The notes under the pieces: model-generated
The model's input: the letters and a program-made list of their open reading frames with translations, nothing else
The model's database searches: none
What the model was told of the DNA's origin: nothing
Translations under genes and position numbers: made by a program
NCBI RefSeq assembly: GCF_048594845.1
Contig: NZ_JBMDXE010000317.1
Location: 2,726-66,725 of the forward strand
Direction of reading: 5' to 3'
Source of the DNA: Rhodopseudomonas sp.
Lineage (GTDB): Bacteria > Pseudomonadota > Alphaproteobacteria > Rhizobiales > Xanthobacteraceae
Length of the DNA: 64,000 nt
Part shown: positions 17,349 to 33,619 of the stretch, piece by piece
Layout of the letters: each line of letters begins with the position of its first letter
How positions within the stretch are numbered: the first letter of the stretch is position 1

Positions 17349-17407
17349 CAGCTTCTGTGGGGCCAGCGCCCCGGGTACCTGCGACGCGTCGGTGGGGTGA
17401 GGCCGCC

Positions 17408-18400: not shown

Positions 18401-18686
18401 GGACGTCTCCTGGCTGGATTCAGGGTCGAAGGGAGAGCTGTTTGCTACTCATCTGATATGCGGATCACGCGGTCGTCAACGCGGCCGGTAAATATGGAAC
18501 AATCGCCTCCGTAGATCCGTGTTCCGGAACGACCATTCTCCTGAAAACTTCCGATTTGGACGGAAATCCCGTAGCGGAATGGCTGCCAATTCGTCCCGCG
18601 CCCTTCACAACGGCGTCACGCTGGCTGTAGTATCCCTTGTGCATGCTGCTTCGCAGCGTCGATCGGACGGGAGTCAGGAGCGTTTC

Positions 18687-19299: not shown

Positions 19300-20208
19300 T
19301 CACTTCAGATAGCTGGCCAGATTGAGGTTCAGGATCTTGCCGATCGCCGAATAGGATGCGGTGAGCTGCGACTGATAGGTCGAAAGCTGTGCCGTGACCG
19401 CGGCAACATCGACCGAGGTCAGGTCGCTCGCCAGCGTCTCGGTAAAGCTCTTGTAGTCGCTCTGGCGAGTGCTGGCGTCCTGGATCGCCGAAGCATTGTT
19501 GGACAGCTTCTCCTGTACGGCGGCGATCGAATCGAGCGCCGTTCCGGCGAGATCGAGCGCGCTGGAGATGTCGCTTGCCGAGAGTGAACTGCTGTTCGCT
19601 ACGGAGCGCAGGGCCCGCATCGCCTGCTCGAACGCCGAATTGTCGGCGGTGACCCCGTACGACACCGAGCGATCGGTGCTGACGCGGACCGCGGCAGCCT
19701 GATCGTCGCCCTTGTAGTAACCGGTGTCCGCGACGGTGGTCGAGCCGGAGCCCGACACGTAGCTCGACAGATCGACCGGCGCGGTGTCGGTCTTGCCGCC
19801 TGCGAACAGGTACTGGCCGTCATATTGCGTGTTGAGCAGCGAGGCCATCGACTTCAGCATGTCCTGCGCCGAGCTGATCACGGAGGTGGTCTCGGTGGCG
19901 CTGCCGGTCGAGGCGGCGCTGAGCTGCGAACGCAGCTGCGTCATCACGTCGGTCATAGACCCCACGGCCGAGTACATCGCCTGGACTTTGCCGCTCGCGA
20001 GCGTCGCGGCGTCGATGTAAGACTGCGCGCGGGTGAGACCGACCTGGAGATTGACGACGTGCTGCGCGTCGGCGCCGTAGCCGGCCAGCGTCTCGGACTT
20101 CACGCCGGAGGATTCCTGCAGCTGAAGGTCGGCGGTCTTGGCCTGAATTCGCAGTGCGTCCGAGATCATCTGGCCCGACAGCGCGAAGGTCGCGACCCGC
20201 ATGGTCAT
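19300..20208 (-). CDS. flgL: Flagellar hook-filament junction protein FlgL-like
   Basis: Flagellin-like N-terminus, LNTQYDGQYLFAGGKTDTAPVD, C-terminus LTASYSAIGKILNLNLASYLK; directly downstream of flgK. Confidence 0.85.
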   Translation of the reverse strand: MTMRVATFALSGQMISDALRIQAKTADLQLQESSGVKSETLAGYGADAQHVVNLQVGLTRAQSYIDAATLASGKVQAMYSAVGSMTDVMTQLRSQLSAASTGSATETTSVISSAQDMLKSMASLLNTQYDGQYLFAGGKTDTAPVDLSSYVSGSGSTTVADTGYYKGDDQAAAVRVSTDRSVSYGVTADNSAFEQAMRALRSVANSSSLSASDISSALDLAGTALDSIAAVQEKLSNNASAIQDASTRQSDYKSFTETLASDLTSVDVAAVTAQLSTYQSQLTASYSAIGKILNLNLASYLK

Positions 20209-20221
20209 GGCGCCGCTCCGC

Positions 20222-21988
20222 TCAGCCTGCCGACTGAACGGCGGTGAGCAGCGCCGAGAACATCGTGTTGATGATCTGGATCAGCTCCGAGGCCGCGGAG
20301 TACTTGTTCTGCAGCTCGCTCATGTTCGCCGTCTCTTCGTCGAGATTGACGCCGGATTGCGACGACAGCGAGCTGGCATAGGTCGACTGCGCCGCCTCCT
20401 TGGCGGTGTAGGTGCTGGACGCCTGCGAGGCCCGGCTGGCGACGTTCGATACGATCGCGGCGGCGTAATCGGCGAACGAACCCGTCGTGGCGGACAGGCC
20501 GCCGACCGCCGCAAAGCTCGTGGCGCCGGTCAGCTTCTGATACAGCGTATCGACCACGCTGGCGGCGTTGGACGTCACCACGACGGAGCCGGTCGTGAGC
20601 GTCGCTGACGAATCGAGCGTCGCCAGCGGCAGCGAAGTCGCCCCCGACAGAAGATCGCTGCGCACCGCGAAATCCGAGGCGCCGGTCGCGGTGACCAGAT
20701 CGTTGAGGCCGAAATAGCTGGAGAACCCTGCGCCGCTGCTGCCGGCCGCGCTGGTCATCTGGTTGATGGCGACGCCGTTGCCGCTGCCGGTCGCCTTGAT
20801 CACCAGATGGCCGTCGGCATTGATCGAGGCCGACAATCCGGAGATGCCGTTGACGGCGCTGACGAGGTCGCCGACCGTCGCGTAAGACGACAGGTCGAGA
20901 TCGGCCGACGACACCAGCTTGCCGCTGGAATCGGTGACCGCGAGCCGTACCGTGCCGGTCGCCGACAGCGCATCGCTGCTCGACACCGAGGCCGAGCCGG
21001 TGAGGCTGGCTGGCGGGGGAAGAGACGTCTGCGCGTTCGAGACGGCGTTGAGGGTGGTGGCGAGCTGTGTGGCCAGCGTATCGAGCTGCGACTGGACCGC
21101 CGGTAGCGTGCTGTCACGCAGCGTCACCAGCGCACTGACCTTGCCTGAGCTGATCTGCGACGTGATGTCGACGCCGTTGACCATGATGCCGCTGAAGCCG
21201 CCGCTGCCGTAGGAGGTCGAGGCGCTGACGCTCGACGCCGGCGTGTAGCTCAGCGTGTGTGCCGAACTGTCGACCAGCGCCTGGCCGGAGGTGGTGGAGA
21301 TCTGCAGGTCGCCGTTCGCCGCCGTGTAGTAGGAGATGTTCATCTGCGAGGAGACGTCCTGCAGCGCGGTGTTGCGCTCGTCCTCCAGATCGGCGGTGGA
21401 CTGACCGGCCGCCGCGGCCTGCCGGATCGCGGTGTTGAGATCCGCGATGCGCGACAGATCGTCGTTGATGCCGCTGACCGCGGAGGCGATGTCCTGGTCG
21501 GCGTTGCCGCGCAGCTTCTGGATGCCGCTCGACGTCTCGCGCAGCTGCGACGCCACCGCTTCCAGTGCGCTCACCGCGTTCGACTGCAGCGAACTGCTCG
21601 ACGGCGTCGCCGCCAGCGACGACAACGCCGACTCCAGCGAGGCGAGCGTATTGGCCAGCGAAGTGCCGGTCGACGTGCTGCCGGAGCTGCTGGTCGAGCC
21701 GTAGAGCTGCTGCAGCGAGCCGAGATAGCTGTTGAGCGTATCGGCCGATCCGAGGTCAGAGTTTGAGGCGATCAGCGACTTCAGCAGCAGGCGGTCGACC
21801 GTGCTGGTGATGCCGGTGACGGTGACGCCGGTGCCGACCCCGGCGGTGACGCTGCTGGCCTGGTTGGCGGTCTTCTTGGTGTAGCCGGTGGTGTCGGCAT
21901 TGGCGATGTTCGCCGATGCCACCGAGATCTGCACCTGCGTCGCCGACAAGCCGCTGAAGGCGATGCTTCGGGCGATGTTGAGCGACAT
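20222..21988 (-). CDS. flgK: Flagellar hook-associated protein FlgK
   Basis: SGLSATQVQISVASANIANADTTGYTKK, DLEDERNTAL, SGVNLDEETANMSELQNKYSAASELI. Start ATG 21988 (GGAGGAGG RBS). Confidence 0.9.
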   Translation of the reverse strand: MSLNIARSIAFSGLSATQVQISVASANIANADTTGYTKKTANQASSVTAGVGTGVTVTGITSTVDRLLLKSLIASNSDLGSADTLNSYLGSLQQLYGSTSSSGSTSTGTSLANTLASLESALSSLAATPSSSSLQSNAVSALEAVASQLRETSSGIQKLRGNADQDIASAVSGINDDLSRIADLNTAIRQAAAAGQSTADLEDERNTALQDVSSQMNISYYTAANGDLQISTTSGQALVDSSAHTLSYTPASSVSASTSYGSGGFSGIMVNGVDITSQISSGKVSALVTLRDSTLPAVQSQLDTLATQLATTLNAVSNAQTSLPPPASLTGSASVSSSDALSATGTVRLAVTDSSGKLVSSADLDLSSYATVGDLVSAVNGISGLSASINADGHLVIKATGSGNGVAINQMTSAAGSSGAGFSSYFGLNDLVTATGASDFAVRSDLLSGATSLPLATLDSSATLTTGSVVVTSNAASVVDTLYQKLTGATSFAAVGGLSATTGSFADYAAAIVSNVASRASQASSTYTAKEAAQSTYASSLSSQSGVNLDEETANMSELQNKYSAASELIQIINTMFSALLTAVQSAG

Positions 21989-22010
21989 GGCGGCCTCCTC
22001 CGCTGCGACG

Positions 22011-22490
22011 TCAGGCGCGAATGCTGGTCCCGACCGACGTGGCACGCACCGCGCGCGCGCCGCCGGCGCCGTAGGGCGAGGCGCTGGCGAGCTGTTCGCG
22101 GATCGCCTGCATCACCGCGTCGATGCGGCGGTGGCTCGCTTCCATCGCGGCGCGCAGCCGCACCAGGTTTTCGTCCATCGCGCCGCGCAGTTGCAGAACG
22201 CGATCGACCAGCCGGTCTCGGAGCTGCGGGTTCTGGACGTGGATGACGTTCGATCCGCCTGTGCAGTCCGCGACCCAGCGTTCGAACAGCTCGGCCAGCC
22301 GTGCCTTCTCGTCGACCTGCTTGAGCCGCGAGGCGGGCAGCCCTTTAGCGAGTTCGGTGTTCTCGTCGTCGATCACCAGAATCAGCTCGTCGATCAGTTG
22401 GATCATCGCCAGCGCGCGCTCGTCGCTGATGCCCGTCCGGGCGGGATTGCCATGGCCTGCCTGTTTCATCGTCGCCGTTCCCGTCTTCAT
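22011..22490 (-). CDS. Putative FlgN-like flagellar export chaperone
   Basis: Helical protein of about 150 aa (LILVIDDENTEL...ENLVRLRAAMEASHRRIDAVM...SPYGAGG) immediately upstream of flgK/flgL. Confidence 0.55.
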   Translation of the reverse strand: MKTGTATMKQAGHGNPARTGISDERALAMIQLIDELILVIDDENTELAKGLPASRLKQVDEKARLAELFERWVADCTGGSNVIHVQNPQLRDRLVDRVLQLRGAMDENLVRLRAAMEASHRRIDAVMQAIREQLASASPYGAGGARAVRATSVGTSIRA

Positions 22491-22496
22491 CAGAGT

Positions 22497-22760
22497 TCAG
22501 TGCCGGCCGGATCGCCCGGCCGCGTTGGCTCCACGCGCATAGGCGGTAATCGCTGTCGTCCGCTCGGTCGCCCGCGCCAGTTCGGCGGCGACGCGTTCGC
22601 GGCCGCGCGCCAGCTCGCGGCGGATCCGCTCGATCGCGTCGATCAAGGCGACGAGATCGGCCTCGGCGCCGCCGCCGGCCCGCGCGGCGCGCAACTTCAG
22701 CCGCGCGAGGCTGGGCAGCAGCGTATCGAGGTGCTCGTCGTGGTCCGGGCGGCGCGTCAT
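22497..22760 (-). CDS. Small helical protein, possibly a FliT-like chaperone
   Basis: 87 aa, coiled-coil-like, ends ...AITAYAR...; start overlaps the flgE stop. Confidence 0.45.
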   Translation of the reverse strand: MTRRPDHDEHLDTLLPSLARLKLRAARAGGGAEADLVALIDAIERIRRELARGRERVAAELARATERTTAITAYARGANAAGRSGRH

Positions 22761-24022
22761 CGCATCGCCGAGATCAAGGTATCGAACATCTTGTTCACCG
22801 TGGTGATCACCTGCGAGGCCGCCGAATAGGCCTGCTGCGCCGAGATCATGCTGCTGAACTGGCTCGACGTGTCGGTCGTGCTGGATTCCAGTTCGGAGCC
22901 GTAGATGGTGCCGGCGCCGTTCGCACCCGAGGTCTGCACCGACGCGCTGCCGGAGTCCGCCGTCGCCGAGTACATGCCGTAGCTGTTGCCGGAGAGGCCG
23001 CTCGGATCCTTGAAGGTCGCGACCGCGATCTTGTAGATCGCGATGGTCTGGCCGTTCGAGTAGGTGGCGTTGACGACGCCGTTGCTGCCGACCTTGATGC
23101 TGGAGAGCTTGCCGTAGGCGAGGCCGTCCGACGAAATGCTGGTGACGTTGATGGCCGGCGTCGTCAGGCCGGAGGCGTATTGGGTCAGCCCGTTGGTGCT
23201 GCCGACGGTGCCGAGGTCGAGCGAGACGGTCGAGTCCGACGCACCGTCGGTCCAGCCGCTTACCGCAATCGTCGCCGGGCTCGGGCTGGTCGAAGCGAGC
23301 GAGCCGTCGCTGTTGAAGGTGATCGCCACCGAGCCGGAGGTTGTGCCCGTGGTCTTGCTGGTGTCTGACGACAGCGTCGGGTTGCCGAAGCTCGCTGTCC
23401 AGGCGTTGGCGGCGGTCTTGGTCCAGGTCACCGCGACCGAATTCGCGGTGCCGAGTGAATCGTACACCGTCATCGAACTCGAATAGGTGGCGCCCGTTTC
23501 GGCGTCGGCCGGCAGATTCGCCGCGAACGTCGTCTTGGTGGTAGCGCTGCCGCTGGTCGAGGCGACCTGGGTGTTGATCGGGGTGAGGCTCGACGAGGAC
23601 GCATCGCCGACCACGTTGCCGTCGGCGTCGGTGCGCCAGCCTTCGAGATAGTAGCCGTTGTTGACCAGGTAGCCGGAATTGTCGATCGAGAACGCGCCGT
23701 TGCGCGTGTAGTAGGTGGTGCCGCCGGAGGCCGCATCCGAGGTGACGAAGAACCCGCTGCCCTGGATGGCGACGTCGGTGGCGTTGCTGGTCGCGGCCAG
23801 CAGGCCCTGCTGGCTGATATTGGCGCGGCCCGAGACGGTGACGCCGCCCGACGCGTAGGACGACGAACTACTCGACGCCGTCACCAGATTCTCGAACATC
23901 GCCGAGGTGGTCTTGTAGCCGGTGGTATCCGAATTGGCGATGTTGTCGGAGATCATCGACAAGGACTGGCTCTGCGCGTTGAGCGCCGAGATCGCCGAAG
24001 AGAGTGCGCCGCTGAGACTCAT
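22757..24022 (-). CDS. flgE: Flagellar hook protein FlgE
   Basis: ISDNIANSDTTGYK, TDVAIQGSGFFV, YTRNGAF, YDSLGT, C-terminus LESS..D...FSSMISAQQAYSAASQVITT. Confidence 0.93.
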   Translation of the reverse strand: MSLSGALSSAISALNAQSQSLSMISDNIANSDTTGYKTTSAMFENLVTASSSSSSYASGGVTVSGRANISQQGLLAATSNATDVAIQGSGFFVTSDAASGGTTYYTRNGAFSIDNSGYLVNNGYYLEGWRTDADGNVVGDASSSSLTPINTQVASTSGSATTKTTFAANLPADAETGATYSSSMTVYDSLGTANSVAVTWTKTAANAWTASFGNPTLSSDTSKTTGTTSGSVAITFNSDGSLASTSPSPATIAVSGWTDGASDSTVSLDLGTVGSTNGLTQYASGLTTPAINVTSISSDGLAYGKLSSIKVGSNGVVNATYSNGQTIAIYKIAVATFKDPSGLSGNSYGMYSATADSGSASVQTSGANGAGTIYGSELESSTTDTSSQFSSMISAQQAYSAASQVITTVNKMFDTLISAMR

Positions 24023-24041
24023 GACACTGCTCCGGCTGCGA

Positions 24042-24710
24042 TCACGACGTGACGCCGATGACGTTGCTGGCGCTGACCGCCACGCCGTTGACCAGCAGCG
24101 ACGGCGTGCTGGTCGAGGTGTCGATGCCGGTGACGGTGCCGCTGACGGTCGAGTACTGGTAGACGGAGTTTCCGGCGGCGTCGGTCGCTGTCACCGAGAT
24201 GCTGTACTGCCCGCCGTCGGAGAGTTGCGTGCCGCTTGAATTCTTGCCGTCCCAGGTGAAGCTGTTGGAGCCGGCGGTGCCGCTCCCGGTGCCGCTCCAC
24301 ACCGTGTTGCCGGACGAATCCTTGATGCTGATCGCCACGTCCGACGCGGCCGACGACAGGGTGTAGCCGAATGTCGCCGAACCGCCGGACAACGTGGCTG
24401 TGTCGGTCTTGGCTTCGACGGTGTGGCCGATGTAGTTGACCGAATTCAGCGTCACCAGGCTCGAGAACGAGCTCGCCAGCGAGCTCATGCTGGCATTGGT
24501 GTTCTGCTGTTCGGTGAAATTGGCGTAGGACGTCAGTTGATTGATGAAATCGGTTGTGCTGGTGGCGTTCAGCGGATCCTGATTCTGCAGTTCGCTGACC
24601 AGAAGGCTGAGAAAGTCGCTGGAGCTGAGAGAGGTGGAAGACGACGACGAACTCGTCGTGCTCGTCGAGGTGGTGGCGGCCGACGCGGTGGTCGCGGCAA
24701 CGCTGGTCAT
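24042..24710 (-). CDS. flgD: Flagellar hook capping protein FlgD
   Basis: DFLSLLVSELQNQDPLNATSTTDFINQLTSY, FTWDGKNSSG, GQYSISVTA. Start ATG 24710 (GGAGG RBS). Confidence 0.92.
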   Translation of the reverse strand: MTSVAATTASAATTSTSTTSSSSSSTSLSSSDFLSLLVSELQNQDPLNATSTTDFINQLTSYANFTEQQNTNASMSSLASSFSSLVTLNSVNYIGHTVEAKTDTATLSGGSATFGYTLSSAASDVAISIKDSSGNTVWSGTGSGTAGSNSFTWDGKNSSGTQLSDGGQYSISVTATDAAGNSVYQYSTVSGTVTGIDTSTSTPSLLVNGVAVSASNVIGVTS

Positions 24711-24802
24711 GTCGCAAGCCTCCAGGCTTCGCCGCACGGTGCGCAGCGAGGGCGTGGTGAAAACGGATGGTCTTGGGCGGAGTCCGTGGGGCCGCCTGCT
24801 GA

Positions 24803-24834
24803 TCAAACGGGGCGGCGGCCGAATCCAGGCGCGG
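24803..24834 (-). promoter_or_regulatory. Putative ECF promoter of the flgDE-KL operon
   Basis: Minus strand reads CCGCGCCTG-N15-CCGTTTGA; the motif is shared with four other cassette promoters. Confidence 0.7.
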
Positions 24835-24862
24835 ATTCTGAGGAGCTAATGAATTGATTAGT

Positions 24863-24876
24863 CGGCAGAATTTGCC
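24863..24876 (-). promoter_or_regulatory. ftr-like (FlbD-type) palindrome upstream of the flgD promoter
   Basis: GGCAAATTCTGCCG, 28 bp upstream of the putative -35. Confidence 0.45.
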
Positions 24877-24900
24877 TAGCGCGGGACGTGGTCGTGGCGC

Positions 24901-25410
24901 TTAGTTCAGCCGTGTGCGCTGGACATCCGACAGCGTCGTGTCGCAGGCGAGCGCGTGCGACATCCGCCAGAACATGTGGGCGAGGCGTGTGAAAGCGATC
25001 CGCTCGCGGGCCGAATCCTCGACGCTCGGCGGCAACGTGAACGTCTCGATACCGATGATGTTGTCGCAGGTGGGATGCTGGCCGATCGCCTGCGCGATCA
25101 CCGATACGCAGGGGGCGTCATCGGCTGCTTCGGCGTCGGTTTGAGGCGGCAGGCCAGGGTGCTGCAACGGCGCCGCATAGAACTGGTAGGCGCCGTGGCC
25201 GAGTTGCTTCACGACATCATCGGCGAGCGGCGGCGTGTCGCCGAAGCAGACCAGCCGCGAATCCTTCAGCACCTCCGGCTCGAGCAGATCGAGATCGGAA
25301 GGCGACACGTCGGTCCAGATCGACAGGCCCGGATTGTGCTCGCGGAGCAGCAGCGTCAGCGCGTGCTGATAGTCGGGGCGGCCGGCAAACAGGATGATGG
25401 TCTTGAGCAT
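24901..25410 (-). CDS. Formyltransferase-like protein with degenerate active site
   Basis: TIIL...HNPGL, LGHGAYQFY (NFHP expected), LAHMFWRMSHALA resemble rhizobial formyltransferase-family proteins. Confidence 0.55.
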   Translation of the reverse strand: MLKTIILFAGRPDYQHALTLLLREHNPGLSIWTDVSPSDLDLLEPEVLKDSRLVCFGDTPPLADDVVKQLGHGAYQFYAAPLQHPGLPPQTDAEAADDAPCVSVIAQAIGQHPTCDNIIGIETFTLPPSVEDSARERIAFTRLAHMFWRMSHALACDTTLSDVQRTRLN

Positions 25411-25422
25411 CGGGCGTATCCT

Positions 25423-26754
25423 TCAGATGCGCGGCACCGGGACGACGGCGCTGCCGCGTCCGCTCGCGAGCGAGGCAAAGAGATCGGGCGGGATCGGCTG
25501 GCCGGGCAGGATTTCGAGCACGCTGGCGCGGCCCGAGCGCGCTGCCCGTCGCGCGGCATCGACCTCGTCGCGCCAGGCACACAGCGTCAGTTCGAGCCGG
25601 CCGAAGCCGCCGCATTCGGCGGCGAATGCGCTGGTCGCGGCATCGATGGTGGCGGCGACAGCGCGGGCGTCCGCCGTGCCGACATCGTGCAGAATCACCG
25701 CAACGCTGTCGGTCGAAGGCGAGGGGGACTGCATCACCACGAGGGCGTCGCGAGGTCCGGTCCGGCCGGCCCGTCGCGGCGCGCGGGCGATTGCCGCGAA
25801 GCTCGGGTCGGGTCCGAGATCGGCCGTGGTGCTGCGCAGATCGTGGACGATCGTTGCCTTGCTCTCCGACAGATCCCCGACCAGCGCGTGGTATGAGCGT
25901 GGCAGCCAGACCGTGTCGAGCGACCGCTGCGAGGTCGCCAGGCACCAGGCCTGATCGAGCAGCGCGCCTTCCCACACAGTCGGGCACAGCTCGGCGAGCT
26001 GCTGCCAGACGGCGAGGAAGGCTTCGGCAGCGGCGGTCCGGCCGAGGTAGATCGTTCGGGCCGACATCTCCCAGCGATTCCATTTATGGACCGCGAGATC
26101 GCAGGCCAGCCGTGTCGGTATCAGCGGCGCCTCGTGCAGATCGGCCCCCGCCTCGACGAACAGCAGCGGTTCGGCGAAGCGGTCCCACATTCGCGCGATG
26201 AAGTCGGCCTTCTCGGCGCACTGCAGGCGATCGTCGAATGCGCTGTCGATCGGTTCGATATGCGCGGCGAGCTGGTGGCGCTCGACGGCTTGCCGCAGCC
26301 GGATCGCACCCTGATCGTCGCCCCGGCGCGGATAACAGCTCACCACCCGTAGCCGCTCGGCCGTCGCGGCGCGCGGCACGAGCGTCTCGATCGGGCCGAT
26401 GCCACCCCACCACAGCTCGTGCGGGCCGTCGGCGCCGTGCGTGCCCACCGTGCCGTATTCGGTCAGCTTCGATTTCAGAAAATCGAACACCGGATTCTCG
26501 CCGAACGGCACGACGACGACGCAACCGGGCCGCAGGCTGCGATAGAACAGCTCGGCGCCGGCACTGTTGAGAGGATCGGTGACGATGATCAGCCCATCCT
26601 CGGGCCGAAGCTTGTCGCCTCGCCGATATAGCCTGGCTGCGCCGAACTGCATGACCAGCCAGCCGAGCCGGCGGCGCTGCGCGGCGTTGAGCCGAAGCTC
26701 GGCGGAGCGCAGCAGGGAGGCGAGGTCTGCGGGGACATGATCGGAAGCGTGCAA
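25423..26754 (-). CDS. Hypothetical protein with a GT-A/nucleotide-diphospho-sugar transferase-like central domain
   Basis: VVSCY...A.RL...L..HIE...C..KADFI..M...LLFVEAG (DxD position degenerate)...CDLAVH...TIYL..T..A..FL..W. Start uncertain; TTG 26754 chosen, ORF is open to 26928. Confidence 0.45.
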   Translation of the reverse strand: MHASDHVPADLASLLRSAELRLNAAQRRRLGWLVMQFGAARLYRRGDKLRPEDGLIIVTDPLNSAGAELFYRSLRPGCVVVVPFGENPVFDFLKSKLTEYGTVGTHGADGPHELWWGGIGPIETLVPRAATAERLRVVSCYPRRGDDQGAIRLRQAVERHQLAAHIEPIDSAFDDRLQCAEKADFIARMWDRFAEPLLFVEAGADLHEAPLIPTRLACDLAVHKWNRWEMSARTIYLGRTAAAEAFLAVWQQLAELCPTVWEGALLDQAWCLATSQRSLDTVWLPRSYHALVGDLSESKATIVHDLRSTTADLGPDPSFAAIARAPRRAGRTGPRDALVVMQSPSPSTDSVAVILHDVGTADARAVAATIDAATSAFAAECGGFGRLELTLCAWRDEVDAARRAARSGRASVLEILPGQPIPPDLFASLASGRGSAVVPVPRI

Positions 26755-26807
26755 GATGGTGGACCGCAAAAGGGAAAGCTGCCCCTTGAACGGCCGAGCG
26801 CGCGGGA

Positions 26808-29255
26808 TCAGGCGCGCGCGTTTTCGTCGGCGCTGGCGGCGAGCGGCCGGCCTGCGCCGAGCGGCGTCACCGCCAGCGTGTAGATCGCGACCGGTGATGG
26901 CAGTGGGCCGAGTTGGACCAGCAGGCACGCCTCGTCCTGATCAGCCAGATAATGACGGCCGCTGCGGCGCAGTCCGGCATCGATCAGTTGCGCGGCCGGA
27001 ACGCTCACGACCTCCTGCCCATGCGCAGCCTCGGTGATTGTCTTGCCCTGCTGCAGCACGACGCCGTCGAGTAGCCCTTCGCGCGCGAGCTTGCCGAGCG
27101 GCAGCGCGATCATCGCGAGGCCCATTTGCTGCGAGACCGGGACGCGGAGGCGCAGATCGCCGAGGCCGGTGAGAAATACCGTGACGGTCTGCAGCGTGGC
27201 GCTGCCGTCGGCTCCGAACAGACCAACCTGCAGCGTGCCGCAAGGCGCCTCGCCGACTACATCGGACGACAGTCGATTGGCGCCGAACAGCGCATAGGAA
27301 TAGGCCAGCGACGGTGATAGCGCCGCGAAGCTGCCGGCGATCCACATCGGCGGCGGGGCGGTGGTGCAGGCGGCGGAGAGGCCGCGCGCCACGATCTGCT
27401 TACGGATGAAATCGCCGTCGATCATCGGCGCCAGCGTCGCGGTGCCGAGATTGACGTCGTGCTGGAAGTCGCCGAACAGCGCGAGCTCCTCGTCGTCGGG
27501 CAGCAGCAACAATCGCCCGATCGTGGCGGCGCTCCAGGCCGCCGACCGCGCAAGGTCGTCGTCAGGCGACAGCCTATAATCCGTGGCGACGGCGCCGGCC
27601 GCTGCCGTGAAGGCGAGCGCGCCGGCCTGGATCTCGGCGCATCGCGCGATCTGCGCGGCCGGCCGCGGATTGGCTTCGCGCACCACGCGGCCGTGCTGAT
27701 AGTCGCGGACCGATCCCTCCGGTGCGCAGCAGATCTGCTCCAGAATCAGCGCATTGCGCACCAGCATGCGATTGACGTGCGGCGTTACGGTGCGATCGCA
27801 GATGAAGCCCTCGGCGCTGTCGCCTTCCGGAATATCCTCGAGCGCGTCGTCGAGGGCGAACAGATACAGCCCGTGCAGGCGGACGGATCTGCCGTCCAGG
27901 CGTAGCGCGCGGTTCAGCGCTTTCTGCACATTGCCCGAATAGCCGACATCGACCAGCACGACGTCGGTCAGCGCGTCGAAATCAGCTATCGTCCGTTGCA
28001 GATAGCCGATCAGCCGGGCCCGGAGCCCGGCCGCGAGGTCGGCGACATCGCGCGGGCGCAGCAGGGTCGGCAGCGCGTCGGCGAGATCGGCGCCAGTGGC
28101 GATGCCGCCGGGATGGTCGGCGAAGAAGCGTGTGACTGCCGGCGGCAGCAGCTTCATCATGTCGCGGAACGTCGCGGCGTCGATCTTCGGAATCTTGCGA
28201 AACAATTCGCACAGCGGCTCGAGCGTATCGGCCGAGGCGATCAGGCTGACGCGGCGATTGACTTCGAGATAGCAGGCGGGTGTCGCACGCGTCTGTTGCC
28301 AGACCCGGTACGACAGGAAGCCGTCGCGGCCGAGGAAGGCGAGGCCGACGCGGCGGCCCTGCTGCTCGAGCTTTGCCAGACGATCCGCCACGAAAGCATC
28401 GAACGCGCGCATCACCGGTCCGACCACGGTGACGCCGAGATGATGCGCCGGCGATTTCTCCGCGCTGCGCGCCGCCACCATCCGCCGCAGCGTGCGTGCG
28501 CCATGATCGAGCTGCCGCGGGTGATCGTCGCACAGCAGTTCGAACAGCGAGGCCTCGCGCTGCAGCCGCGACGTCAGCCTCGCGCCGGCCTGCGGATAGT
28601 GCCGCGCCCGGATGCCGAAGCGCCGCGCGCCCTCGATGTCGGCCTGCGGATTGTCGCCGACATGCAAGGCCAAGGCGGTATCGATCCCTTGCTCCGCCAC
28701 ATAGGCGGCGAACAGCGACTCGCTCTTGCTGCTGCGGTGGTCGCAGGAGGCGTAGAGGAAATCCCAGGCGAGCTCGGGGCAGCACGCCCGCAACAGTTGC
28801 CCGAGCCGCGCCGAATCCCAATACGTATCAGAGATGAATCCGACGCGGTGGCCGGCGCGCTTGTTGTCGAGATATTGCGCGAGTATTTCCGGATTTGTCC
28901 GGCACAGGTCGAGCTCGGCGCTGAATTCCGCTTCCACCAGTCGATCAATCGCGCCCGCATCGAGCCCGAACAGTTTGAACGGGAAGCAGGAATAGATCTC
29001 GGCGATATGCACCTCGGCCGAGCCGCGTGTCTGCTTTGCTTTCGCGCGCGCGCGGGATTCAGCAAGGATGCGATGCTGACAGAAACCATCAGACATATTC
29101 CGATCATCATCGGAAATGCCCGAAAGCTGATAAGCCCTTTCAAATACGCCGGTTGGCGTCGTGCAGGCACGTACCAGAAATGTATCGAAAACATCGAACG
29201 AGCACGCGCGCTGCGTCTGCGTTCGACGTAGGCCGCCGATCGATAGCGCCGTCAT
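26808..29255 (-). CDS. HAD phosphatase + glycan phosphoribosyltransferase-like protein (probable PRPP-dependent ribofuranosyltransferase)
   Basis: HAD motifs SFDVFDTFLVR, ISDTY, SSKS..LF, HVGDN..AD; second domain G...VGP..., FLGRDG, LVDVGYSGNVQ, GLYL, LEQ....EGS...Y. Start placed at ATG 29255. Confidence 0.7.
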   Translation of the reverse strand: MTALSIGGLRRTQTQRACSFDVFDTFLVRACTTPTGVFERAYQLSGISDDDRNMSDGFCQHRILAESRARAKAKQTRGSAEVHIAEIYSCFPFKLFGLDAGAIDRLVEAEFSAELDLCRTNPEILAQYLDNKRAGHRVGFISDTYWDSARLGQLLRACCPELAWDFLYASCDHRSSKSESLFAAYVAEQGIDTALALHVGDNPQADIEGARRFGIRARHYPQAGARLTSRLQREASLFELLCDDHPRQLDHGARTLRRMVAARSAEKSPAHHLGVTVVGPVMRAFDAFVADRLAKLEQQGRRVGLAFLGRDGFLSYRVWQQTRATPACYLEVNRRVSLIASADTLEPLCELFRKIPKIDAATFRDMMKLLPPAVTRFFADHPGGIATGADLADALPTLLRPRDVADLAAGLRARLIGYLQRTIADFDALTDVVLVDVGYSGNVQKALNRALRLDGRSVRLHGLYLFALDDALEDIPEGDSAEGFICDRTVTPHVNRMLVRNALILEQICCAPEGSVRDYQHGRVVREANPRPAAQIARCAEIQAGALAFTAAAGAVATDYRLSPDDDLARSAAWSAATIGRLLLLPDDEELALFGDFQHDVNLGTATLAPMIDGDFIRKQIVARGLSAACTTAPPPMWIAGSFAALSPSLAYSYALFGANRLSSDVVGEAPCGTLQVGLFGADGSATLQTVTVFLTGLGDLRLRVPVSQQMGLAMIALPLGKLAREGLLDGVVLQQGKTITEAAHGQEVVSVPAAQLIDAGLRRSGRHYLADQDEACLLVQLGPLPSPVAIYTLAVTPLGAGRPLAASADENARA

Positions 29256-29283
29256 GCGTCGTAATCCGCTTATTTGTCGTCGG

Positions 29284-29314
29284 TTCAACGCGTGGTAATC
29301 GATAAGCAGGCGGC
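29284..29314 (-). promoter_or_regulatory. Putative ECF promoter of the HAD/gPRT operon
   Basis: Minus strand reads GCCGCCTG-N15-GCGTTGAA, about 30 bp upstream of ATG 29255. Confidence 0.65.
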
Positions 29315-29617
29315 GGGCGACGCTAAAAGTTAGTTCGTGATCGAAATGCTGCTGATCATCGACTGACACCGCGACAAATTGCGTTAGTGTCGAGTGCATG
29401 ATTCGGAACTCACCACTCGTCGCTAATTCGCGAGAACGGCTACGTCGCCAACGCGATGGTGATCGTTCGTCGCGTCTGTGCCGATGGTGTCAGCCGGCTC
29501 GCGCGCCGATCGCGCTGCGCGTCGCGAGGGGAGAGCCGCTCGGTCGGCCGGCGGGCCCCCTTGGTGTGTCGATGTGGTCTGCGCTGTGCATCGGAGCGCC
29601 GATCAGCCGGACAAGGA

Positions 29618-29652
29618 GGCAAATATTGCCGTCCGGTCGGCAAAACATTCCT
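29618..29652 (+). promoter_or_regulatory. Two ftr-like sites upstream of the sigma promoter
   Basis: GGCAAATATTGCCG (29618-29631) and GGCAAAACATTCCT (29639-29652); the second lies 28 bp before the putative -35. Confidence 0.45.
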
Positions 29653-29680
29653 ACTAACTATTTGAAAAATAATCAAAATA

Positions 29681-29712
29681 CCGCGCCTGCTTGGGGCGGG
29701 ACGGCCGTTCAA
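29681..29712 (+). promoter_or_regulatory. Putative autoregulatory ECF promoter of the sigma gene
   Basis: CCGCGCCTG-N15-CCGTTCAA. Confidence 0.7.
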
Positions 29713-29768
29713 CACGACGAGGCCAGACTGGTTTGGCGCCAGCGGCGTTGCGGGTTGGAGGATGTGGG

Positions 29769-30464
29769 ATGACTTACGCGGTCGAAATCTCGGCGCCTGC
29801 TGAGGCCAGCGTCGCGGCGCTCGCGCCTGATCACGACACCTCGCCCGAGATGGCGCCGACTCTCGTCCCCGACGTGCCGCCGGCGAGCTCCGAGTTCGTA
29901 TTCGACGAAGACGCGCCGCTGCTCGACCGGCTCGCGACCGGAGACGAAGCCGCTTTCCGCGCGCTGGTGGAGCGGCACATCGATCGGGGCTATGCGATCG
30001 CGCTGCGCATTCTCGGCAACGCGGCCGATGCCGAGGATGTGGTGCAGGACACCATGCTGAAGGTCTGGACGCATCGCGGCCGGTGGCAGCACGGCCGCGC
30101 CAAATTCTCGACCTGGCTGTACCGCGTCATCAGCAATCGCTGCATCGATCTGCGCCGCAAGCCGCGCACCGAGAATGTCGATGCCGTCCCCGAGGTCGCC
30201 GACGCCCAGCTCGATGCGAGCCGCGTGATCGAGCGCAACGAACTCAGCGGGATGCTGGAAACCGCGATGCAGCGGCTGCCGGAGCAGCAGCGCCTCGCAT
30301 TGATCCTGTCGTATCACGAGAACATGAGTAACGGCGAAATCGCCGAAGTCATGGAAAGCACCGTCTATGCGGTCGAATCGCTGTTGAAGCGCGGCCGCCA
30401 ACAGCTTCGCGCGCTGCTGCGCGGACACGAGCGCGACCTGCGCGGCGCATTTACCGACTGTTGA
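29769..30464 (+). CDS. ECF RNA polymerase sigma factor
   Basis: Region 2 (GDEAAFRALVERH...DAEDVVQDTMLKVW...KFSTWLYRVISNRCID) and region 4 (RLPEQQRLALILSYHENMSNGEIAEVMESTVYAVESLLKRGR); no region 3; about 40 aa Pro/Ala-rich N-terminal extension. Confidence 0.93.
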   Translation: MTYAVEISAPAEASVAALAPDHDTSPEMAPTLVPDVPPASSEFVFDEDAPLLDRLATGDEAAFRALVERHIDRGYAIALRILGNAADAEDVVQDTMLKVWTHRGRWQHGRAKFSTWLYRVISNRCIDLRRKPRTENVDAVPEVADAQLDASRVIERNELSGMLETAMQRLPEQQRLALILSYHENMSNGEIAEVMESTVYAVESLLKRGRQQLRALLRGHERDLRGAFTDC

Positions 30465-30490
30465 CCATAAACTCGCCGCTGCGCGTCTTT

Positions 30491-30522
30491 GCCGCCTGAT
30501 CGAGGCGGCTCCTTCCGTTCGA
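30491..30522 (+). promoter_or_regulatory. Putative ECF promoter of fliC-fliD-fliS
   Basis: GCCGCCTG-N16-CCGTTCGA. Confidence 0.7.
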
Positions 30523-30601
30523 ACATCAGACGGGGACGATCCGCGTCCGGTGTCATCGCCGCGACGCGGCTGGTCACGCCGATCAGCACAGGAGCCTTGC
30601 T

Positions 30602-31426
30602 ATGCCCGCGATTTCGACCAACACGGCGGCCAATTCGGCGGTCCGCTATCTCAACATCAACTCCGCGCAGGAGACCAGCTCGCTGTCGAAACTGGCGAGC
30701 GGCTCGCGCATCACCTCGGCGTCCGACGACGCGGCCGGTCTTGCGATCTCCACCCGGATCTCCTCCGACGTCACGACGCTGCAGCAGGCCGCCACCAATG
30801 CGTCGCAGGCGGTCGCCATCCTGCAGACCGCCGACGGCGGCGCGTCCAATATCAGCGACATCCTGGCCCGCATGAAATCGCTGGCGTCCGAATCCGCCTC
30901 GGGCACCACCACGGATTCGAGCCGCGCCTACATCAACTCTGAATTCTCACAGCTCTCCAGCCAGATCGACTCGATCGCCAGCGGCACGCGTTACTCGAGC
31001 CAGAGCCTGCTCGACGGCACCAGCGTGTTTGCTTCGGGTGTCTCGGTGCTGGTCGGCACGCAGGGCAGCGACACCATCACGATCACGCTGTCCGACCTGA
31101 AGTCGGCGACGCTCGGCGTCTCCAGCCTCGACGTCAGCACGCAGTCCGGTGCCACCACGGCGCTGAGCTCGCTCGACACCGCGATCAACACGGTCTCGGC
31201 GGCGCGTGCCAGCATCGGCGCGCAGGAGTCGCGGTTCAACTTCAGCGCCGACTCGATCTCGACCCAGACCCAGAATCTGCAGTCGGCGAACTCGGCCATC
31301 AAGGATGTCGATATCGCCTCCGAGCAGGCCAAACTGTCCTCCGCGGAGGTCAAGACCCAGGCAGCCGTCTCGGCCGAAGCCGCGGCGAACCAGATGCCGC
31401 AATATCTGCTGAAGCTGCTCGGCTGA
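30602..31426 (+). CDS. fliC: Flagellin, minimal (274 aa, D0/D1 only)
   Basis: SKLASGSRITSASDDAAGLAIS, LQTADGG, RMKSLA, C-terminus IKDVDIASE...QAA...AANQMPQYLLKLLG; AGGAG RBS. Confidence 0.93.
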   Translation: MPAISTNTAANSAVRYLNINSAQETSSLSKLASGSRITSASDDAAGLAISTRISSDVTTLQQAATNASQAVAILQTADGGASNISDILARMKSLASESASGTTTDSSRAYINSEFSQLSSQIDSIASGTRYSSQSLLDGTSVFASGVSVLVGTQGSDTITITLSDLKSATLGVSSLDVSTQSGATTALSSLDTAINTVSAARASIGAQESRFNFSADSISTQTQNLQSANSAIKDVDIASEQAKLSSAEVKTQAAVSAEAAANQMPQYLLKLLG

Positions 31427-31466
31427 TGATGCCCTCGCCGGGCCGGTCACGGCCGGCCCGGCATCA
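31427..31466 (+). other. GC-rich hairpin between fliC and fliD
   Basis: GCCGGGCCGG-tcacgg-CCGGCCCGGC 10 bp stem; no U tract. Confidence 0.6.
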
Positions 31467-31487
31467 CCGTGAGATCGATCCGACGCC

Positions 31488-33200
31488 ATGACTTCGGTCA
31501 GCAGCACGACATCCAGCACCGCCGCCACCACGAGCAGCGCGACCTCGTCGTCGTCCGGCACGTCGGTGACGACGTCCGGAACCTCGACCACCACCAGCGT
31601 CGATTGGGATTCGCTGATCGCCTCGGCGGTCAACGCCAAGCTCGCGGCGGCGACGTCGATCTCGACCAAGATCACCGCCAACGAAGCCAAGATCGCCGCC
31701 TATCAGACGCTGCAGACCAACCTCAGCACGCTGTCCTCCGGGCTGTCCTCGCTGGCGACCGCCGTGGTGAATTCGCTGGCCACCAACGTGTTCGCCACCC
31801 GCGCCGCGACGCTGAGTTCGACCGGCGACGTAAGCGCCTCGTCGGCGCTGTCGATGTCGGTGAAGAACGGCGCCGCGACCGGCGACCACACCCTGACGAT
31901 CAGCCAGATCGCGACTGCCCACAAGGTGATGAGCGCGACGCAATCGAGCAGCACCGATGCGCTCGGCAGCAGCGGCACCATCTCGCTCGGCCTCGCCGGC
32001 GGCAGCAGCGCGGACATTTCGATCACCAGCACGATGTCGCTGCAGGACATCGTCGATGCCGTGAATGCACAGAGTTCGACCACCAACGTCGAGGCTTCGA
32101 TCGTACAGGTGTCGAGTGGGTCGTATCGGATGGTGCTGACCGCGACGCAGGACGCCGCCGACATTCAGTATTCCAGCGTGTCCGGTGATGATGTTCTGAA
32201 CACGCTCGGCTTCACCGACAGTTCCGGCAGCTTTTCGAACGTGCTGCAGACCGCCCAGTCCGCGGCGTTCACGCTCGACGGCATCTCGATGACGCGCGAT
32301 ACCAACGACATCTCCGACGTGCTGACTGGCGTGACGTTCAATCTGCTGCAGGCGACGCCGACCGGTTCCAGCATCAACATCAGCATCGGCACCGATACCA
32401 GTCAGATCAGCTCGGCGCTGCAGACCTTCGTCACCAACTACAACGCCTATCGCGACGCGGTGATCGCCCAGCAGGCGACCAATTCGGACGGGACGGCGTC
32501 CGACAGCGCGGTGCTGTTCGGCGACAGCACGATGCGGGATATCACCAGCCGGCTGGAAGCCGCGTTGAACACCACCGTCGGCGGGCTATCGATGACCGCG
32601 ATCGGTCTGTCCTTCAACGAGAAGAACGAGCTCGAACTCGACACCAGCACGCTGTCCAGCATCCTGTCGACTAATCTCGCCGGTGTCACAAAGCTGTTGT
32701 CGGCGCAGACCACGACCTCGTCGAGCCAGCTTTCCGTCGTCAACACCGGCACGGCGCCGCAATCTTTCACGCTGGATCTCGCGGTGGATTCCAGCGGCAA
32801 TCTCGCCAGCGCGTCGGTCAACGGCGACTCGTCGCTGTTCACGGTGAGCGGCACCACCATCATCGGGGCGGCCGGCACCGCCTATGCGGGGATGGCCTTC
32901 ACCTACAGCGGCACGACAGCGCAGTCGATCACCGTGACTTCCACCTCGGGTATCGCGTCGCAGCTCTACCAGATCGCGAACAGCACCTCGTCAACCAGCG
33001 GTTCGCTGCAAACGATGATCAGCGGCCTGCAGAGCCGCGATTCCGATCTGCAGCAGAAGGTCGACGACATCACCGCGGCGGCGGCCACCTACAAGAGCCA
33101 GCTGCAGACGCAATATGCCAACTATCAGGCGGCGATCGCCAGCGCCGACAATACGCTGACCTATCTGAAAGCCCTCCTCAACGCCAGTTCGAGTAATTGA
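31488..33200 (+). CDS. fliD: Flagellar filament cap protein FliD
   Basis: VDWDSLIASAVNAKL, TISQIATAHKV, TLQTAQSAAFTLDGISMTRDTNDISDVLTGVTFNLLQ, FVTNYN, LFGDSTMR, LQTQYANYQAAIAS. Confidence 0.88.
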   Translation: MTSVSSTTSSTAATTSSATSSSSGTSVTTSGTSTTTSVDWDSLIASAVNAKLAAATSISTKITANEAKIAAYQTLQTNLSTLSSGLSSLATAVVNSLATNVFATRAATLSSTGDVSASSALSMSVKNGAATGDHTLTISQIATAHKVMSATQSSSTDALGSSGTISLGLAGGSSADISITSTMSLQDIVDAVNAQSSTTNVEASIVQVSSGSYRMVLTATQDAADIQYSSVSGDDVLNTLGFTDSSGSFSNVLQTAQSAAFTLDGISMTRDTNDISDVLTGVTFNLLQATPTGSSINISIGTDTSQISSALQTFVTNYNAYRDAVIAQQATNSDGTASDSAVLFGDSTMRDITSRLEAALNTTVGGLSMTAIGLSFNEKNELELDTSTLSSILSTNLAGVTKLLSAQTTTSSSQLSVVNTGTAPQSFTLDLAVDSSGNLASASVNGDSSLFTVSGTTIIGAAGTAYAGMAFTYSGTTAQSITVTSTSGIASQLYQIANSTSSTSGSLQTMISGLQSRDSDLQQKVDDITAAAATYKSQLQTQYANYQAAIASADNTLTYLKALLNASSSN

Positions 33201-33619
33201 TGACCCAGCATTCGATGGCCCAGCGGGCCAACCAGGCCTATCGCGGCGCCGCCGTGGCCGTGCCGCCGCTGAAGGCGGTGGTGATGCTTCACGCCGGCGC
33301 CATCACGCAGCTCCGCCGGGCGATCGAGGCGCAGGAGGCGCGCCGGTTCGAAGAGGCGCATGAATGCGTGGTGCGGGCGACCGCGATCCTGCGCGGCCTG
33401 AGCCATTATCTCGATTCCGGCCGGGGTGGCGCGCTCGCCGAGCGGCTGTTCCACACTTACAATGCGCTGGTGCTGGCCTCGCTGCGCGCGTCCGGCCGGC
33501 CTCACGCAGGCGCGAACCTGCAGCGCATCATCGACGGCATCGCCGAGCTGCGCGAAGCGTGGGAATACGTCGAGACCACGGCGCGGGCCGGCAGCTCCGA
33601 CCGTCCACCGCAGCGCTGA
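33197..33619 (+). CDS. fliS: Flagellin chaperone FliS
   Basis: QAYRG...PPLKAVVMLHAGAI..L..A, AILRGLSHYLD..RGG.LAERL..TY, LREAW. Confidence 0.85.
   Translation: MMTQHSMAQRANQAYRGAAVAVPPLKAVVMLHAGAITQLRRAIEAQEARRFEEAHECVVRATAILRGLSHYLDSGRGGALAERLFHTYNALVLASLRASGRPHAGANLQRIIDGIAELREAWEYVETTARAGSSDRPPQR

Follow-up and report, generated by a model that had tools for sequence, protein, structure and literature searches.

A predicted PRPP-dependent ribofuranosyltransferase encoded among flagellar genes of Rhodopseudomonas sp.

The subject of this study is a gene for a large dual-domain protein, which lies within a flagellar gene cluster of Rhodopseudomonas sp. (assembly GCF_048594845.1, contig NZ_JBMDXE010000317.1, positions 2,726 to 66,725). 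This stretch of 64,000 nucleotides was analysed as a whole and is called the window in the following. The gene in question, hereafter the enzyme gene, is located inside a compact 14-kb cluster (19300-33619) that encodes exported axial parts of the flagellum, a chaperone and a sigma factor together with the genes of the module discussed here. Its predicted product joins a phosphoribose-phosphatase (PRP) and a glycan phosphoribosyltransferase (gPRT), for which phosphoribosyl pyrophosphate (PRPP) would be the donor. The gene and its parts are the following:

26808..29255, minus strand: dual-domain enzyme gene (815 amino acids; predicted PRP phosphatase, gPRT transferase and C-terminal beta domain), based on the open reading frame, the alignment of homologues, the promoter position and the family assignment
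26808-26810, minus strand: its stop codon TGA
28536..29216, minus strand: N-terminal HAD-like PRP domain, residues ~14-240 (NCBIfam and Pfam HAD matches, alignment with Bcs3 and 7SHG, AlphaFold2 model)
27276..28508, minus strand: gPRT domain, residues ~250-660 (profile and Foldseek matches, invariant residues)
26856..27254, minus strand: C-terminal beta-sandwich domain, residues ~668-800 (AlphaFold2 strands at 670-798 with a predicted local distance difference test score, pLDDT, of ~90)

The longest minus-strand open reading frame (ORF) that contains the gene extends from 26808 to 29399 and would encode 863 amino acids. Since all 13 aligned homologues start at or after the methionine of the ATG at 29255, which is the 49th codon of this longer frame, and since a conserved promoter-like motif (29287-29312) falls within it, we place the start at 29255, and residue numbers count from this ATG. 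The HAD part of the protein carries the motifs SFDVFDT (19-25), ISDTY (141-145) and HVGDNPQAD (198-206). In the second domain FLGRDG (307-312), VDVGYSGNVQ (435-444) and LEQICCAPEGS (505-515) are found, next to the further elements NRR (with R334) and HDVNLG. The closest relatives belong to Rhodopseudomonas (85-86% identity), followed by Bradyrhizobium (~62%), and in public databases the homologues are named "hypothetical protein", "HAD family hydrolase" or "FMN phosphatase YigB". A Pfam scan gave a single HAD match below the cut-off (E 1e-3) and no Pfam model for the remainder of the protein, and the NCBIfam scan gave weak HAD-IA matches; the HAD assignment is clear with profile searches, though weak in Pfam. 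Neither the sequence nor the AlphaFold2 model indicates a signal peptide or a membrane segment.

Used as a single query against the PDB sequences, the protein found only the HAD part of Bcs3 from Haemophilus influenzae (E 1e-3). A profile of 14 close homologues additionally found the "ribofuranosyl transferase" of Thermobacillus composti (7SHG), with both domains aligned. When the C-terminal 579 residues served as the query of an exhaustive search, 708 clusters (50% identity) were obtained at E <= 1e-3, the majority of them with proteins of ~800 amino acids that possess an N-terminal extension of ~250 amino acids. A profile of 31 homologues drawn from these clusters, with identities down to 22%, matched Bcs3 with E 2.7e-33 over residues 381-842, that is from CrpP into CriT, and 7SHG with E 1.4e-30 over both domains (independent E-value of domain 2: 1.2e-10). 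The PRP domain of the enzyme aligns to residues 381-590 of Bcs3 CrpP and to residues 33-252 of 7SHG. Bcs3 and 7SHG are the only multi-domain matches of this profile in the PDB, the next ones being generic HAD phosphatases with E 1e-8 or worse, and the C-terminal half of the gPRT domain, when used as a profile, retrieves 7SHG alone (E 2.1e-9).

The structure prediction points in the same direction. An AlphaFold2 model built on 35 sequences (pLDDT 90, predicted template modelling score 0.89) is composed of three parts, namely a capped HAD domain with Rossmann-plus-cap fold (~14-240), a mixed helical and alpha/beta part (~250-660) and a beta-sandwich (~668-800). Each of the top eight Foldseek matches of this model in the PDB is a chain of Bcs3 (8a0c, 8a0m) or of 7shg, with E-values from 1e-19 to 3e-16 (best values: 1e-19 for Bcs3 and 1e-17 for 7SHG), and HAD-only structures follow at ~1e-5. 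The alignments to Bcs3 and 7SHG comprise 625-792 columns, with a global TM-score of only 0.33-0.52 and a root-mean-square deviation of ~16 A, as is expected if the domains are oriented differently in the predicted and the solved structures.

Many of the residues that matter for catalysis in Bcs3 have a counterpart in the enzyme. In Bcs3, the two residues D680 and E818 bring the ribose of PRPP into position, and mutation of either one lowers the activity; the phosphates are held by R679, by R708 and by the loop 821-825 (PMC10299916). According to the profile alignment these positions correspond as follows:

Bcs3 R679/D680: R310/D311 of the enzyme (FLGRDG)
Bcs3 R708: R334 of the enzyme
Bcs3 E818: D436 of the enzyme
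Bcs3 821-825 loop: GYSGNVQ loop of the enzyme

R310, D311, R334, D436, G438, Y439, Q444 and E506 are invariant in the alignment of the 31 homologues. E506 is common to the enzyme and 7SHG, and Bcs3 E874 is without an alignable counterpart. The key residues of the PRP domain (D21 in motif I FDVFDT, SDT 142-144 of motif II, K177, and D201 and D206 of motif IV) are invariant or nearly so, and motif I (FD[IV]FDT) retains only the first aspartate, as it does in CrpP.

Taken at the level of homology, predicted fold and active-site residues, the enzyme almost certainly belongs to the gPRT-PRP family. PRPP as donor, the transfer of ribose-5-phosphate, its subsequent dephosphorylation and ribofuranose as the product are what this family membership would imply by analogy. 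A previous reading of the DNA, made from its letters alone (the sequence-only reading), had proposed an N-terminal HAD domain fused to a second domain and a PRPP-dependent ribofuranosyltransferase. The motifs it quoted and the start at 29255 are all present in the minus-strand ORF, the fusion was confirmed by the profiles and the AlphaFold2 model, and profiles and a confident fold group the enzyme with the only two solved PRPP-dependent glycan ribofuranosyltransferases. The comparison of a predicted structure with Bcs3 and other gPRT-PRP proteins, which that reading had suggested, was carried out, and the second domain matches the gPRT fold. The likeness to Bcs3 was thus correctly seen; the name given to its phosphatase has to be amended, since it is CrpP and not CrrP, and the order of domains in Bcs3 is CroT-CrpP-CriT.

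On the minus strand of the cluster, the enzyme gene is followed by n450, n169, flgD, flgE, two small ORFs, flgK and flgL. On the plus strand the gene for an extracytoplasmic function (ECF) sigma factor, divergent from the enzyme gene, is followed by a gene for a flagellin of 274 amino acids, fliD and fliS. Apart from n450 and n169, which are described with the partner genes, the neighbours are these:

29769..30464, plus strand: ECF sigma factor, divergent from the enzyme gene (NCBIfam PRK12538, E 6e-126; 50% identity to RpoE6 of Azospirillum brasilense by BLASTP)
30602..31426, plus strand: small flagellin fliC (274 amino acids, D0/D1 only, 30% Ser+Thr; Pfam; 56% identity to A. brasilense FliC2, ungapped, by BLASTP; orthologue in B. 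diazoefficiens: blr3695)
31488..33200, plus strand: fliD, filament cap (34% Ser+Thr, Ser/Thr-rich N-terminus; Pfam, composition)
33197..33619, plus strand: fliS, flagellin chaperone (Pfam FliS, E 6e-21)
24042..24710, minus strand: flgD, hook cap (40% Ser+Thr; Pfam, composition)
22757..24022, minus strand: flgE, hook protein (33% Ser+Thr; Pfam, composition)
20222..21988, minus strand: flgK, hook-filament junction protein (Pfam)
19300..20208, minus strand: flgL, hook-filament junction protein (Pfam)

Genes for the basal body, the motor or the export apparatus are absent from 19300-33619, and the cluster resembles an alternative "outer kit" that would complement a basal body encoded elsewhere. 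The lateral (laf) flagellar system of Bradyrhizobium was considered as its identity and rejected, as the cluster is limited to exported axial parts plus an ECF sigma factor and matches the RpoE6 cluster. The six exported proteins consist of 25-40% Ser+Thr, compared to ~10% in the adjacent cytoplasmic proteins, and FliD and FlgD possess N-terminal tracts of Ser/Thr only. The cluster is flanked by glgC, glgA, an HNH gene and unrelated genes, and domain scans of the 64-kb window detected no genes for polysaccharide assembly or export (polymerase, flippase, ABC transporter) in the cluster or its flanks.

Some observations concern the borders. A 385-amino-acid ORF without family match and the HNH endonuclease gene adjoin flgL (17357-19244, plus strand). 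An HNH gene is also found at the equivalent flgL-side border in R. telluris, so that this border may mark a site of insertion or the end of a mobile segment. Further upstream of the cluster lie ordinary genes, namely a PAS-GGDEF-EAL gene (2108-4687, minus strand) and the glgC-glgA pair for glycogen synthesis (14297-17031, plus strand).

The enzyme gene also appears to share its regulation with the flagellar genes. Cross-species alignments of the regions upstream of fliC and of the enzyme gene revealed that CGCCTG and CGTT are conserved as two blocks with 16-17 nt between them. The pattern CGCCTG-N15-18-CGTT occurs at seven sites in the window, where 1.6 would be expected, and this number was not attained in any of 100 shuffles. 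Of these sites, five are correctly oriented and located directly upstream of genes:

29287-29312, minus strand: motif before the enzyme gene, CGCCTG-N16-CGTT, 32 nt upstream of the ATG
29684-29709, plus strand: motif before the sigma gene, also conserved in other loci
30493-30519, plus strand: motif before fliC, CGCCTG-N17-CGTT, both blocks invariant in the three-species alignment
26789-26814, minus strand: motif before n450, overlapping the stop codon of the enzyme gene, also conserved in other loci
24806-24831, minus strand: motif before flgD

The copy before the sigma gene suggests autoregulation. The two remaining sites, 20420-20446 and 22256-22282 (plus strand), are in antisense orientation to flgK and to the small ORFs that separate flgK from flgE; both carry the same extended -10 CGTTCGA as fliC and may be either chance occurrences or antisense promoters. 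A search for ungapped 12-mers shared between the upstream regions of the enzyme gene and fliC found none; the shared element is bipartite and emerged only from cross-species alignments and the gapped pattern.

The motif before the enzyme gene is conserved in the Rhodopseudomonas/Bradyrhizobium alignment and kept in 19-20 of 35 species-level loci from several families. In 23 fetched loci it lies ~55-80 nt upstream of the estimated start. Among the loci that possess it are those from Bradyrhizobium, Tardiphaga, Astrobacterium, Pleomorphomonas, Pseudolabrys and Magnetospirillum, where the flanking sequence has diverged, and also two loci without nearby flagellar genes (L018, L035). RpoE6 of A. 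brasilense drives fliC2-fliD-fliS from a mapped promoter with the -35 element CGCCAG, a spacer of 16 nt and the -10 element CGTGAG (PMC12826043). This promoter type is present before fliC2 and before flgD (6798-6823 of locus L087) in the A. brasilense cluster, and the motif of the window resembles it in form and position.

Taken together, the enzyme gene very probably belongs to the flagellar regulon of the ECF sigma factor, with the sigma-dependence of its promoter deduced from the motif. The sequence-only reading had stated that the gene shares the promoter motif of fliC and that no polysaccharide export genes are nearby. Both observations hold: the motif is enriched in the window, conserved across loci and RpoE6-like, and the flanks consist of glgC, glgA, HNH and flagellar genes. 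A scan of 24000-31000 for sigma-70 promoters found no sites, and terminator-like matches were at chance level. The sequencing runs that hold the sequence of the window contain metagenomic DNA only (straw and soil metagenomes). The intergenic region of the sigma gene and the enzyme gene also contains an AT-rich block (29620-29690), which is conserved from Rhodopseudomonas to Bradyrhizobium and holds the inverted repeat TTGCCG-N7-CGGCAA; this repeat could be the binding site of an additional regulator of the divergent promoters.

The neighbourhood was compared across 80 loci, using one genome per species, of which 35 encode close homologues (~36-61% identity) and 45 distant ones (26-33%). In 24 of the 35 close loci a gene for flagellin, fliD, flgD, flgE, flgK or flgL is found within 10 kb. 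The gene order varies: Bradyrhizobium and Rhodopseudomonas have the enzyme gene divergent from the sigma gene, and in Rhodospirillaceae, Magnetospirillum and Dongiaceae it comes after flgL. The distant loci are sphingomonad and betaproteobacterial, and 24 of these 45 lie near flagellin or hook genes or near genes for MotA, CheA, CheR or CheB. Flagellin or hook genes are nearby in six of them, including Rhodocyclaceae and "Candidatus Methylophosphatis" (flagellin ~1.3 kb upstream), and in 18 sphingomonad loci the enzyme gene is placed between genes for methyl-accepting chemotaxis proteins and motA-cheA-cheR-cheB. No consistent sigma-28 promoter element of the GCCGATAA type was detected before the enzyme gene in the 45 distant loci, so that co-regulation there is argued from the neighbourhood alone. 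Homologues of 22-28% identity on plasmids sit in polysaccharide loci, for instance in Azospirillum sp. TSH100 (with a methyltransferase, a GT4 glycosyltransferase and export genes). The association with motility is therefore a property of the clade of ~800 amino acids and not of the entire enzyme family.

The C-terminal beta domain is without a match in Pfam or the PDB sequences by profile searches and is absent from 7SHG (648 amino acids). Its profile matches members of the Bradyrhizobium type and those from Pleomorphomonas and sphingomonads, and is unmatched in the two tested homologues from polysaccharide loci (Azospirillum TSH100 and Mesorhizobium). We propose that this domain would recognise the acceptor. 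A homologue of 836 amino acids from a metagenome-assembled genome of Magnetospirillum sp. (L031, 9962-12472) shows no match to the profile, yet it is linked to flagellar genes and possesses the promoter motif; its C-terminus may represent a different domain or an assembly artefact.

The two genes directly downstream of the enzyme gene are the following:

25423..26769, minus strand: n450, ~448 amino acids, downstream neighbour, probably a glycosyltransferase of the GT-A fold (AlphaFold2 and Foldseek)
24901..25410, minus strand: n169, short degenerate formyltransferase-like protein of 169 amino acids (Pfam matches of orthologues, profile)

The former is found only in Bradyrhizobium, Rhodopseudomonas and relatives, and it has no sequence match in Pfam or the PDB. 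Its AlphaFold2 model is of moderate confidence (pLDDT 71) and matches GT-A glycosyltransferases in Foldseek with E ~1e-4 (the glycosyltransferase domain of LH3, A64R of PBCV-1, and glycogenin), several of which glycosylate proteins; n450 is thus probably a GT-A-fold glycosyltransferase, as judged from the model. In the n169 family, five of nine orthologues match Pfam Formyl_trans_N, and the family profile matches Fmt and ArnA. The n169 of the window, like its counterparts in R. telluris and some Bradyrhizobium, is shortened to 169 amino acids, and QFY replaces the catalytic NFH (N-x-H) of the longer orthologues, which looks like a decaying or repurposed gene that is retained in the module.

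Outside Bradyrhizobium, Rhodopseudomonas and relatives, a gene for an S-adenosylmethionine (SAM)-dependent methyltransferase directly follows the enzyme gene. In Rhodospirillaceae, Rhodocyclaceae and sphingomonads this is a Methyltransf_24 protein (L026, L028-L032, L038 and L045; in many sphingomonad loci at ~12350-12460), and in Pleomorphomonas a fusion of TPR and Methyltransf_11 (L019, 13540-14472). This suggests that the installed sugar or its acceptor is methylated in those lineages. GT-A-like proteins, formyltransferase-like proteins and methyltransferases are partners typical of glycan tailoring.

PRPP is cytoplasmic, and O-glycosylation of flagellins is known to occur in the cytoplasm and to precede their export. 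We consider it reasonably probable that the enzyme adds ribofuranose to a glycan of flagellar proteins, or to these proteins directly, within the sigma regulon. The sequence-only reading had already suggested such an acceptor as an inference, and the gene context now speaks for it considerably more strongly. In this scenario an ECF sigma factor of the RpoE6/SigW type would drive the alternative exported parts (FlgD, FlgE, FlgK, FlgL, a FliC2-type flagellin, FliD and FliS) along with the enzyme. The central gPRT domain would transfer ribose-5-phosphate from PRPP to a hydroxyl acceptor, and the N-terminal HAD domain would then strip the 5-phosphate, leaving ribofuranose. The acceptor would be an O-glycan on the Ser/Thr-rich axial proteins or the proteins themselves, the small flagellin being the most likely one, and the modification would take place in the cytoplasm, before export. 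Lineage-specific partners might elaborate the glycan, the GT-A-like protein and the formyltransferase relic in Rhodopseudomonas and SAM methyltransferases elsewhere.

In a more specific version, ribose-5-phosphate from PRPP would be put directly on Ser/Thr hydroxyls of the small flagellin and possibly on those of FliD, FlgE, FlgK and FlgL as well; a priming sugar would not take part, and the HAD domain would carry out the dephosphorylation. The ribose would also be O-methylated where a SAM methyltransferase gene follows, and the C-terminal beta domain would act as a flagellin-recognition module. We regard such a direct transfer as unlikely.

Several points weigh against a flagellar acceptor. 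A high Ser+Thr content is general in flagellar axial proteins. Eleven of the 35 close loci (three of them contig fragments) and about half of the distant loci lack motility genes at distances of up to 10 kb. Many lineages also show no priming glycosyltransferase beside the enzyme gene. Some of the residues that contact PRPP in Bcs3 are not kept in the enzyme (S678->G, S707->N, R712->L, T825->V). The favoured reading draws on homology, fold and context; the characterised gPRTs all use a hydroxyl group of a sugar or of ribitol as acceptor. Moreover, no close homologue of the enzyme is encoded at the RpoE6 cluster of A. brasilense, where FliC2 is glycosylated; the homologues in Azospirillum are distant and located in polysaccharide loci, and a TPR protein occupies the position of the enzyme in the A. 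brasilense cluster.

The strongest alternative is that the enzyme ribofuranosylates an envelope polysaccharide (lipopolysaccharide O-antigen, exopolysaccharide, capsule or a component of a flagellar sheath) and is merely co-expressed with the flagellar parts, for example during surface remodelling. Every characterised member of the family acts on a polysaccharide (PMC10299916, PMC11294581, PMC11231755), the distant homologues (22-28%) in Azospirillum sp. TSH100 and others sit in polysaccharide loci, and some sphingomonad members are found outside motility loci. However, a polymerase, flippase, ABC transporter or export gene is missing from the cluster and its flanks, the enzyme gene stays with flagellar structural genes through rearrangements in several families, and it possesses its own copy of the flagellin-type promoter. 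We therefore judge a polysaccharide acceptor to be improbable.

It is considerably less probable still that the enzyme acts on a small molecule, such as a nucleotide-like or signalling compound, or plays a non-catalytic role in flagellar assembly, with no glycan involved. The public annotation does not go beyond "HAD family hydrolase / FMN phosphatase YigB", relatives of the C-terminal domain are not recognisable, and the flagellar acceptor is deduced from context. Nevertheless, both catalytic domains are related specifically to glycan ribofuranosyltransferases and not to nucleotide phosphoribosyltransferases or YigB, and the partner genes are of a glycan type (GT-A-like, formyltransferase-like and sugar-type methyltransferases). 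Finally, many loci come from related Nitrobacteraceae, so that the counts are not independent, but an inherited accident of a single lineage with no functional tie to the flagellum is very unlikely, as the association persists across different gene orders (divergent from the sigma gene, after flgL, beside flagellin in Rhodocyclaceae, beside MotA/Che in Sphingomonas) and the promoter motif is kept where the flanks have diverged.

PRPP-dependent gPRT-PRP enzymes were defined in 2022-2024, and ribofuranose is known so far only for O-antigens and capsules. The enzyme family itself is not new. What is new here is a large, unannotated and motility-associated clade, tied to flagellar genes in Bradyrhizobium, Rhodopseudomonas, Pleomorphomonas, Magnetospirillum, many sphingomonads and some Betaproteobacteria, together with its added C-terminal domain and its putative control by a flagellar ECF sigma factor. 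If ribofuranosylation of flagellar proteins proves true, the flagellum would represent a new class of acceptor for PRPP-dependent glycosylation, and soil and plant-associated bacteria of agricultural importance would have ribofuranose as a new sugar on their flagellin. In case of a direct transfer, it would even be a new type of protein glycosylation, an O-ribofuranosylation with PRPP instead of a nucleotide sugar as donor. In the literature we found neither a ribofuranosylated flagellum nor an account of the enzyme gene, the only pentoses of flagellins being unidentified ones in the a-type glycan of Pseudomonas aeruginosa PAK. The enzyme is a concrete candidate with a testable prediction, namely increments of +132 Da on the small flagellin. 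This is timely, since a FliC2-type flagellin has been found glycosylated with no enzyme assigned, even though Azospirillum itself is without the enzyme gene at its cluster.

Compared to known systems, the closest relationship is that to the prototypes of the gPRT-PRP family, in which the phosphatase precedes the transferase (PMC11294581). The T. composti protein 7SHG and the Klebsiella pneumoniae proteins ORF5(O4) and ORF7(O7) consist, like the enzyme, of an N-terminal HAD-like PRP followed by the gPRT. They share FD(I/V)FDT, FL(G/S)R(D/E)G, VD(V/L)G(Y/W)xG(T/S/N)(V/I)Q and the LEQ/YEV glutamate with the enzyme. The overall identity is only ~18%, and the enzyme possesses ~135 additional residues that form the C-terminal beta domain. 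The prototypes are encoded in O-antigen loci with an ABC transporter, whereas the locus of the enzyme is flagellar and probably sigma-controlled. That it is not of the polysaccharide (O-antigen or capsule) assembly type, unlike the loci of known gPRT-PRP members, bears on the biological role and not on the fold.

The best PDB match by both sequence and fold is the CrpP-CriT part of Bcs3 (8A0C, 8A0M). Bcs3 is a three-enzyme polymerase, which also comprises a TagF-like CroT and an SH3b polymer-binding domain and which transfers to ribitol in the capsule polymer. In contrast, the enzyme is without CroT, has a different C-terminal domain and differs in several of the serines and arginines that contact PRPP. 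A further parallel is provided by the T1 antigen of Salmonella, where the gPRT-PRP polymerase STM0726 and the GT-A-fold protein STM0725 together make poly-ribofuranose; STM0725 is required for this synthesis, though no glycosyltransferase activity can be assigned to it (PMC11294581). The pair of the enzyme and n450 resembles this arrangement, the likeness being at the level of the predicted GT-A fold only. The T1 locus has an ABC transporter, while the cluster in the window has none.

With regard to the flagellar genes, the best counterpart is the RpoE6-FliC2 cluster of A. brasilense Sp7, which has the same gene set as the cluster in the window, an orthologous sigma factor (50%) and a 274-amino-acid flagellin (56%). 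The two clusters differ in the position of the sigma gene, which is at the end of the cluster in A. brasilense and at its start in Rhodopseudomonas, and in the promoter hexamers (CGCCAG/CGTGAG vs. CGCCTG/CGTT). This system was described in December 2025, with the synteny to R. palustris, Bradyrhizobium and Magnetospirillum noted and the enzyme gene unmentioned; FliC2 migrates as two forms of 28 and 35 kDa, the larger of which is positive in the periodic acid-Schiff stain and thus glycosylated (PMC12826043). The TPR protein of the A. brasilense cluster consists of 618 amino acids and is encoded beside asf6 on the opposite strand, with a gene for a hypothetical protein of 233 amino acids adjoining (L087, 16930-19511, plasmid p3, NZ_CP032342.1). 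It is composed of an N-terminal TPR region and a C-terminal part of ~380 amino acids without Pfam match. By analogy with the architecture of FlmG, it may be the Azospirillum counterpart that serves the glycosylation of FliC2.

The established flagellin glycosyltransferases, i.e. the Maf family, FlmG of Caulobacter, FgtA of Pseudomonas and GmaR of Listeria, O-glycosylate flagellin in the cytoplasm before export, and their genes lie in flagellar loci and are co-regulated with flagellin. No Maf (DUF115) domain, no combination of TPR and GT-B, and no GT2 or GT4 catalytic domain was detected in the enzyme by searches of Pfam, NCBIfam and the PDB or by Foldseek. While all of these proteins use nucleotide sugars, the enzyme is predicted to use PRPP.

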